In this document: piece by piece, positions 1 to 959 of the stretch | Layout: each line of letters starts with the position of its first letter | How positions within the stretch are numbered: the first letter of the stretch is position 1 | Origin: Escherichia coli | GTDB lineage: Bacteria > Pseudomonadota > Gammaproteobacteria > Enterobacterales > Enterobacteriaceae | Assembly (NCBI RefSeq): GCF_003334815.1 | Contig: NZ_QOWO01000112.1 | Direction: 5' to 3' (one strand) | Length of the DNA: 959 nucleotides | Position numbers and translations under genes: made by a program | Notes under the pieces: generated by a model | What the model was told of the DNA's origin: nothing | Databases searched by the model: none | The model's input: only the letters and a program-made list of their open reading frames with translations

Positions 1-93
1 TGACCGCAGCGGCGAAGCGTACCCTTGCATCCCTGCCAGCCCGGCTAAGATGGAGGCACGGCACAGCCCGCACACGACACGGCGGCCACATAA

Positions 94-126
94 CTGAAAA
101 ACCACAAGGCCATGCCCTGCATGGCC
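94..126 (-). terminator. Second hairpin with T-rich tail: possible backup terminator or RNA 3'-end structure (tentative)
   Basis: Seen in sequence: plus-strand GGCCATG (108..114) / CCCTG loop / CATGGCC (120..126) form a perfect 7-bp stem. On the minus strand it is followed by TTGTGGTTTTTCAG (complement of 94..107). The T-run is separated from the stem by GTGG, so it is weaker than a canonical terminator. No U-tract follows it on the plus strand (GGGTAAAGCGG). Confidence 0.35.
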
Positions 127-181
127 GGGTAAAGCGGAGCCGGCGGCGACGTCCTTTGTGCTCTGTCCGGGGACCGGCAGG

Positions 182-205
182 AAAAAGGCGGGGATTTACC
201 CCGCC
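182..205 (-). terminator. Rho-independent (intrinsic) transcription terminator for the minus-strand CDS
   Basis: Seen in sequence: plus-strand GGCGGGG (187..193) / ATTTA loop (194..198) / CCCCGCC (199..205) form a perfect 7-bp stem with 6 of 7 G:C pairs. On the minus strand the hairpin is followed immediately by TTTTT (complement of A-run 182..186). It starts 7 nt downstream of the TGA stop. On the plus strand the hairpin is followed by AGTGTCATCATTTCC, which is not a clean U-tract, so it is mainly unidirectional. Confidence 0.72.
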
Positions 206-212
206 AGTGTCA

Positions 213-959
213 TCATTTCCGGATTTTTGCCAGGGCATCCGCCATGCTGCGGATTTCGTTCCGGGCTTCCCGGACCACCTCCCGCAGAACACCACGGTCA
301 AACCAGCGGCGGGGCGGTTCATCCGGTATACGCAGCACATCCCAGGCCAGCCAACTGGACAGGATATGTTCAATACAATCGCTGACCAGATACATTTCCA
401 CCGCCGAAAAACGTGCGCCCCGGTTCAGGATGGCGTCGAGCACCACGGGCAGGTTTTCGTCGTCCTCATCGAGCCAGCAGGGGTGATCGCTCTCCTTCAC
501 GACCAGGCGAAAGCGGCGCGTCTGGCGGGTCAGTAACGTCTGACCGGTGGTGGTCAGCGCCGCCCGGATACGCCGCGTATCTTCTGCCACCTGGTAACTG
601 ACACAGCGTACTGCATCGCGTACCGCATCAAGAACTGCCCTGATTTCGTCCTCTGCCAGCCACTCACCGGCATACGGGAAAGACACCTGCGTTCCGTCTG
701 CCGGAAGTACCGGCAGCGACTGCCACTGACTGCCGGACAGTACAAGTTCCGCCCCGGTTCCGGTCAGTTTGTGAATGGCGGAGGCCAGGAGCGGCGGCAG
801 TGCGCCGCCGTGACGGTTGATAAGTAACGTCGCCAGCCGGGGCGCATCCAGCAGAACATAAATGCTGATCCAGCCCGGATGGTTCGGGTTCCGCTGGTCA
901 ACATCCGTCTCTTCCGGCCAGCCCTGCGCCAGCAGCAGGTTGCGGGCGTGACGACAAAT
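213..959 (-). CDS. Hypothetical protein of unknown family, C-terminal 248 aa; 5' end of the gene lies beyond the window edge
   Basis: Seen in sequence: the minus-strand frame is open without any stop from 959 down to TGA at 215..213 (248 codons; an open run this long is improbable by chance even at this GC content). Codon first positions are G-enriched and codons are typical enterobacterial (CTG, GCG, CCG, CAG, GAA, GAT, CGT, CGC). The translation is protein-like (...[29 protein letters not shown]...[17 protein letters not shown]...[33 protein letters not shown]...[25 protein letters not shown]), and an intrinsic terminator follows 7 nt after the stop. The GTG at 686..684 used by the ORF track is preceded by only a weak SD-like GGAA and the frame and codon pattern continue unchanged upstream, so the true start is probably outside the window. 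Product family not recognised. Confidence 0.8.

Follow-up and report, generated by a model that had tools for sequence, protein, structure and literature searches.

Single-stranded promoters of class 1, the Frpo/ssi type, reportedly go back to Masai and Arai in 1997. Three classes of ssDNA promoter are defined in the available text of Wen et al. (NAR 2025; PMC12672017), in which the promoters lying 5' of klcA and ardA on pESBL, an IncI1 plasmid, make up class 2, with homologues in F; the same text describes mapping of the pESBL transcription start sites by 5' RACE and also reports RNA-seq. The F copy is named ssp2 in a preprint (bioRxiv 10.64898/2026.01.09.698686), the accessible part of which places it between yffB and yfgB (an ArdB homologue) and describes a stem that stalls complementary-strand synthesis at the stem end until it is resolved by UvrD. 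Supplementary Table 2 of Samuel et al. (Nature 2024) gives Frpo reference sequences, including the candidates 'Frpo' 4', 'Frpo* 1' and 'Frpo* 3'. Promoters of this kind allow conjugative resistance plasmids to express anti-restriction and SOS-inhibition genes within minutes of arriving in the recipient, before the second strand is made, and ssp2 additionally delays that strand, prolonging the burst of expression.

The DNA analysed here is a 959-nt stretch from Escherichia coli (the window), which is matched in 5181 complete E. coli records, nearly all of them plasmids and usually at two places per record. An exact match lies in plasmid pE2863-1 (L001 in the coordinates below), where the gene map places it within the leading region, and the pE2863-1 genes ardA, psiA, psiB and ssb, together with those for a ParB homologue and an "antirestriction protein", are all found on the window's minus strand. 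The nick-site sequence in F is oriented such that the window's plus strand is the one transferred (the T strand) and serves as template for the leading genes. The window is leading-region DNA of an IncI/IncF-type conjugative plasmid.

Most of the window (213-959, minus strand) is occupied by the 3' part of a yffB-like leading-region gene, annotated as encoding the hypothetical protein WP_001005043.1, which is 258 aa in full and runs off the window. No Pfam family was found for this protein (best E = 0.18), although its gene is a conserved upstream neighbour of ssp2 in thousands of IncF/IncI plasmids. Eight nucleotides past its stop codon (213-215) lies its intrinsic terminator (182-205, minus strand), GGCGGGG-TAAAT-CCCCGCC followed by TTTTT, recovered both by the terminator scan and as inverted repeat I8. 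An intergenic gap of 417 nt with 64% GC separates the yffB-like gene from an antirestriction gene of the ArdB/KlcA type (PF03230, Antirestrict, E = 3e-26); window positions 1-212 form the outer half of the gap, and its other end is the start of the antirestriction gene. The same genes are arranged in the same way around the gap in F.

Several further observations were made in these leading regions. At L001 6011-6341, upstream of a frameshifted ssb, there is a class 1 Frpo/ssi element 99% identical to ColIb-P9 Frpo3, and the hypothetical-protein CDS at L001 6328-6642 overlaps its end, maybe as another spurious ORF call on a hairpin. Weak similarity to 'Frpo* 1' was seen upstream of a DUF1281/methylase operon at L001 11771-11891 and, in F, at L002 2664-2784, and this sequence may correspond to the class 3 promoter reported upstream (5') of M.EcoGIX. 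Near-identical enterobacterial leading-region sequence also turned up in two Streptomyces morookaense contigs (L006, L007) and in Collinsella and Oscillospiraceae MAGs (L012, L016, L032); its presence in assemblies with Gram-positive labels most likely reflects contamination or mis-binning.

A long hairpin in the gap between yffB and the antirestriction gene

When the plus strand of the gap is folded as ssDNA, it forms an imperfect hairpin of ~240 nt (L001 ~7833-8070) with a free energy of -106.5 kcal/mol (z = -4.9), a value that no shuffle equals. Window positions 1-70 (plus strand) are the right (3') arm of this hairpin, as judged by the fold, by covariation and by homology. Neither the left arm nor the apex falls within the window; both are found about 170 nt 5' of its start (L001 7833-8000), and because this partner arm is missing from the window the right arm had seemed to be unstructured intergenic DNA.

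To collect copies, a degenerate right-arm pattern was run against a one-genome-per-species collection, retrieving 76 loci. Of these, 45 remained as candidate copies after BLAST against the full gap; their identity runs from 97% to ~65%, and they come from Klebsiella, Enterobacter, Pantoea, Erwinia, Buttiauxella, Yersinia and other genera. An RNAalifold consensus fold from an alignment of 27 non-redundant copies contains a long-range basal stem in which 16 of 40 pairs are kept through changes on both sides; one such pair is U-A in 16 sequences, C-G in 11 and broken in none. Overall, 94.8% of stem cells are paired, compared with 31-42% when the partners are slid by 1-3 columns, and the slid controls give 2-7 pairs changed on both sides against the observed 16, and a covariation score of at most 0.057 against the observed 0.253. 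None of 500 shuffles reached the observed value for cells paired, for pairs changed on both sides or for the covariation score. The right arm of the basal helix (GGCACGGCAC.GCC, window 54-68, plus strand) corresponds to helix 1 of the fold, in which 7 of 14 pairs have changed on both sides and 92% of cells are paired. The long stem is maintained by compensatory substitutions across Enterobacterales.

Promoter-like hexamers can be placed on the right, non-template arm, and the long stem-loop would rebuild with them a double-stranded promoter with a -35 and a -10. The probable -35-like hexamer, TTGCAT (25-30, plus strand), is paired with the left arm; TTGCAT itself is present in 27 of 39 family members, and the pairs at columns 46-49/212-215 are conserved. 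The probable -10 hexamer is TAAGAT (46-51, plus strand), the centre of which is mismatched against ATAAAA on the left arm: the three central bases are unpaired with that arm in 37 of 39 copies, and the consensus fold leaves columns 233-239 unpaired. A mismatched -10 centre of this sort is what one would expect of a pre-melted bubble. The invariance of TA..RT in the -10 is not independent evidence, because it was required by the search pattern, whereas the pattern put no constraint on the -35, the spacing or the mismatches. A distance of 15 nt from the TTGCAT position to the -10 is found in 34 of 39 family members. On the left (template) arm the hexamers are ~19 nt apart, an asymmetry that arises from bulges and gives a mean of ~17 nt; this asymmetry (window 25-51 versus L001 7848-7884) is conserved in most copies. 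The 15-nt right-arm spacer implied by these assignments is short for sigma-70. A sigma-70 promoter scan of the double-stranded window returned no sites, a blank that fits a promoter present only in folded ssDNA, yet is no evidence for such a promoter. From the placement of the hexamers, themselves provisional in their exact extent, we infer that +1 would lie opposite window ~58 on the left arm. The published stall of complementary-strand synthesis at the stem end would be expected by the basal helix, at window ~68-72.

Several lines of comparison connect this hairpin to published elements. The F copy is 97% identical and syntenic, lying between yffB and an ArdB/KlcA-type gene, and two primers of the ssp2 preprint match the window exactly ('ssp2-specific' at 358-380 and 'yffB up F' at 452-471); the window locus is therefore the same as the ssp2 locus of F. 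Local BLAST aligns the element with 'Frpo' 4' at 82% identity across 340 nt, and its right arm with 'Frpo* 1' and 'Frpo* 3' at 75-77%. As expected of class 2, it is situated in the leading region, on the T strand, immediately upstream of an early anti-defence gene whose orientation it shares, and it is homologous to experimentally studied copies through F and through a paralogous class 2 copy (300 nt, 96% identical) directly upstream of ardA in pE2863-1. Judged by this homology, the window element is a class 2 ssDNA promoter of the ssp2 type, already known and represented here by another plasmid's copy. In the ardA-upstream paralogue (L001 867-1211) the -10 is fully paired (ATCTTA opposite TAAGAT), unlike the -10 in the window copy with its mismatched centre, and the two copies may therefore differ in strength or in opening.

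A short reading frame over the promoter arm

A sequence-only reading of the window had drawn attention, with low confidence, to a 25-aa ORF on the minus strand, running from an ATG at 122..120 to a TAG at 47..45 (window 45-122), and both coordinates and translation proved correct. It had offered two readings of this ORF, a type I toxin or membrane micro-protein on the one hand and a chance frame on the other, and had favoured the latter. The ORF exists because a stop-poor, GC-rich stretch runs from an ATG in the stem of a small hairpin to a CTA that overlaps the -10 box. That CTA (plus strand, 45-47) is the complement of the stop codon, and the 3' third of the ORF extends across both the -10 box and the basal stem, with codons 18-25 over the basal helix (54-68). 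The encoded peptide would contain a hydrophobic stretch of ~19 residues.

ORFs of this size are what the base composition of the gap would lead one to expect. In 2000 dinucleotide-preserving shuffles of the 417-nt, GC-rich gap, 95.8% contained ATG ORFs of at least 25 aa, with a mean of 2.45 compared with 2 observed; when GTG and TTG starts were admitted as well, every shuffle contained such ORFs, with a mean of 5.15 compared with 4 observed. The signals expected of a translated type I toxin gene, a ribosome-binding site and an accessible start codon, are lacking here. The sequence-only reading was right that the start codon lies inside a hairpin stem, since the ATG sits in the 8-bp stem of the hairpin at 108-126, and right that there is no Shine-Dalgarno sequence: the minus strand upstream reads GGCTCCGCTTTACCCGGCC-ATG, with nothing Shine-Dalgarno-like in 19 nt.

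Comparison of the copies shows that neither the reading frame nor the start codon is conserved under purifying selection in the way expected of a small-protein gene. In the F copy a 1-nt deletion in the hairpin loop shifts the frame; the same ATG there opens a 103-aa frame across the whole hairpin, which we regard as meaningless. The ATG is missing from the homologous position in four more diverged lineages, where the corresponding segments measure 76, 77, 79 and 80 nt, none of them a multiple of 3. Among eight distinct alleles with an intact frame there are 12 nonsynonymous and 4 synonymous single-site changes. First, second and third codon positions account for 4, 7 and 5 of them, so that the third position is not favoured, and in one of these alleles Asp and Glu appear within the hydrophobic stretch. 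The variation is concentrated in the linker between the hairpins (window 79-101), which holds 12 of the 13 varied positions; the 3' third of the ORF is nucleotide-invariant among intact alleles and shows no synonymous change either. In allele-specific searches of complete E. coli genomes, 237 records carried the frameshift allele, compared with 1645 for the window allele and 2513 for one with a Gln-to-Arg change. The ORF is thus open in ~4150 of the ~4400 E. coli records found by the three queries, a proportion that is expected at 90-100% identity and by itself does not exclude translation. Frame-breaking indels in close relatives, which the sequence-only reading had named as grounds for abandoning a gene, are accordingly present in the 1-nt deletion of F and of those 237 records.

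Database searches were in line with these comparisons. The peptide had no match in NCBIfam or PADLOC at E values up to 10, and an exact look-up of three peptide alleles in a collection of 15 billion proteins found none, although absence from that collection is weak evidence alone because short ORFs are rarely called. Of 40 plasmid records sampled, 39 have no CDS annotated beneath the match. Rfam searches at the gathering threshold across both leading regions (pE2863-1 and F) placed no family at the ORF locus, while sok, FinP and traJ_5 were recovered at their known places. A cognate antisense RNA or a toxin/antitoxin family match, as expected of a type I toxin, was likewise not found. The blank NCBIfam and PADLOC searches and the missing alleles add to the case on which a type I toxin or micro-protein gene was rejected.

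The ORF is therefore best viewed as a chance reading frame. The preference of the sequence-only reading for chance is borne out by the shuffles, the F frameshift, the loss of the ATG and the substitution pattern, and its alternative, the toxin or micro-protein, did not survive the want of a conserved frame and of any family match. We are highly confident that the 25-aa ORF is an accidental frame in GC-rich DNA and not a gene, and that the segment at 45-122 is non-coding and part of a class 2 ssDNA promoter of the ssp2 type; the ORF should not be annotated as a gene. More generally, GC-rich hairpin arms yield stop-free frames and a short window may hold only one arm, so that spurious small ORFs are to be expected at such places. 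The locus beneath the ORF does matter, but as a promoter that has already been published.

The outer flank and a proposed mode of action

Outside the long hairpin, on the minus strand, the terminator scan detected a terminator-like hairpin at 94-126, GGCCATGC-AGG-GCATGGCC (126..108) followed by TTGTGGTTTTTCAG (107..94), which holds the ATG of the ORF. It has an 8-bp stem with 6 GC pairs, a 3-nt loop and the tail TTGTGGTTTT; its 3' sequence on the mRNA-sense strand is also given as TTGTGGTTTTT. The sequence at 108-126 thus has the form of an intrinsic terminator, a GC-rich stem-loop with a T-rich tract directly after it on the strand that is transcribed. Other lineages carry GGCCCGG-TTT-CCGGGCC or GGCCCGG-CTT-CCGGGCC, each with TTTTGGGT, and a further lineage has GGCCCG...CGGGCC with TTGTGG; distant family members have no small hairpin. 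Because hairpin and T-tract are kept with different letters, the stem through compensatory changes, it is the structure and the T-tract, and not the ATG inside, that are selected. As a whole, the minus-strand flank (60-215) has an unexceptional RNA fold (z = -1.1), in which only the two terminator hairpins stand out.

Farther out, at the outer edge of the repeated unit, lies a conserved motif, GCGGAGC-N5-GCGACGTCCTT (131-157, plus strand). In the form GCGGAGC-N(2-7)-GCGAC(N)TCCTT it is present in 24 of 39 class 2 members, compared with 0.011 expected per flank, at a distance of 34-86 nt 3' of the right-arm anchor, and in mRNA sense it reads AAGGAnGTCGC. Similarity to the ardA-upstream paralogue stops just past it. 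By eye, the GCGGAGC...TCCTT motif showed no convincing complementarity to the 5' flank or to the apical arm.

Taking promoter activity and the replication stall from the accessible texts on F and pESBL, we propose the following sequence of events. On entry of the T strand into the recipient, RNA polymerase would initiate on the folded ssDNA and transcribe the antirestriction operon, as described for F and pESBL, leaving the base of the hairpin along its left arm toward lower coordinates; the promoter would be turned off once the complementary strand is made, again as in F and pESBL. The stem would stall synthesis of that strand until UvrD resolves it, a step described for F only. The small hairpin and T-tract at 94-126 would act as a second terminator on the mRNA-sense strand, following the one at 182-205, and might in this way shield the promoter hairpin from yffB read-through. 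On its sequence, then, the small hairpin is a probable second terminator.

Read-through from the yffB operon is also the premise of the one reading in which the ORF would have a role, as a real hydrophobic peptide (a type I toxin or membrane micro-protein) translated from such transcripts. Its open frame in most close copies, its stretch of ~19 hydrophobic residues and the occurrence of type I systems in leading regions (hok/sok in F) would all suit a peptide of this kind. Nevertheless, the ORF lies downstream of a strong terminator, has no Shine-Dalgarno sequence and begins in a GC-rich stem of 8 bp; the frameshift is carried by F itself, where the function of the element was demonstrated, and by 237 E. 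coli records with this allele; and the loss of the ATG in four lineages with segments of 76, 77, 79 and 80 nt, the excess of nonsynonymous over synonymous changes (12 to 4) and the acidic residues in the hydrophobic core of one allele all point away from selection on a protein. With NCBIfam, PADLOC and the protein collection all blank, 39 of 40 records without a CDS, and an ORF of such size expected by chance, we consider a real peptide very improbable. Equally hard to credit is that the plus strand at 108-209 encodes an AS-pc01-type antisense sRNA (Rfam RF02875). A weak full-length Rfam match with three hairpins does exist there, but at 20.8 bits (E = 0.51) it falls far under the 79-bit gathering threshold; no match at threshold was found anywhere in the pE2863-1 or F leading regions, no promoter-like site was found, and the three hairpins are already explained as two terminators and a GC-rich palindrome. 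We rejected this match as a chance structural resemblance, given its sub-threshold score and a locus that stayed blank in the scan that recovered sok, FinP and traJ_5 at their own places.

A different question is whether the 3' flank at ~71-157 (the linker, the small hairpin and GCGGAGC...GCGACNTCCTT) works as DNA on the T strand, in priming, helicase entry or as a roadblock, in place of an RNA terminator. The small hairpin forms equally well on the plus (T) strand, and some of the 24 of 39 members with the GCGGAGC motif have no terminator-like hairpin at all. In F, moreover, the accessible part of the preprint maps the stalled 3' end to the stem end, which adjoins this flank and is where UvrD must act, and priming of DNA synthesis is known from class 1 elements. 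However, the same part of the preprint ascribes the stall to the stem itself, and the A-tract of the T strand (the T-tract in mRNA sense) is conserved next to the hairpin in all lineages that keep it, a hallmark of intrinsic terminators for which a role at the DNA level is not obvious. On balance we regard a purely DNA-level flank as unlikely, and retain the reading of 94-126 as a probable second terminator. Doubtful as well, and offered here as a suggestion, is the idea that the outer flank (~94-157), with the small hairpin and the GCGGAGC-N-GCGACNTCCTT motif, might constitute a functional module that has gone undescribed in class 2 ssDNA promoters. It could be an insulator that prevents an arriving RNA polymerase from melting the promoter hairpin, or else a signal in the DNA, for priming or for the entry of UvrD, that determines how long the replication stall lasts.

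Relation to known systems

With its small size, its hydrophobic product and its place in a leading region close to stable hairpins, the 25-aa ORF resembles type I toxin-antitoxin loci such as hok/sok (= flmA/B), but it differs from them in having no conserved frame, Shine-Dalgarno sequence, antisense RNA or family match. The true hok/sok locus of F was readily detected, and it lies elsewhere (L002 12808-13135).

Class 1 Frpo/ssi elements (Frpo1/Frpo2 = ssiD in F; ssi1-3 in ColIb-P9) share their mechanism and genomic niche with the window element, but their stem architecture differs. Comparison of F ssiD/Frpo1-2 and ColIb-P9 ssi1-3 with the window element gave no BLAST hit (word size 7, E up to 1e-3), and membership of class 1 was rejected for want of sequence similarity. 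DNA synthesis is primed at class 1 elements, whereas the accessible part of the preprint (bioRxiv 10.64898/2026.01.09.698686) reports that ssp2 blocks it. The sequences 'Frpo' 4', 'Frpo* 1' and 'Frpo* 3' are homologous to the window element but have neither the ATG nor the reading frame of the 25-aa ORF; they are computational candidates and derive from an insect-gut metagenome element.

The closest correspondence is with the class 2 promoters themselves. The small terminator-like hairpin and the GCGGAGC...GCGACNTCCTT motif of the window go unmentioned in the accessible text of the class 2/ssp2 literature. In other respects the window matches the class 2 promoters of pESBL and ssp2 of F closely: it occupies the same locus, has a second copy 5' of ardA and carries a long imperfect ssDNA hairpin with a -35 and a -10, as we place them, on the T strand.
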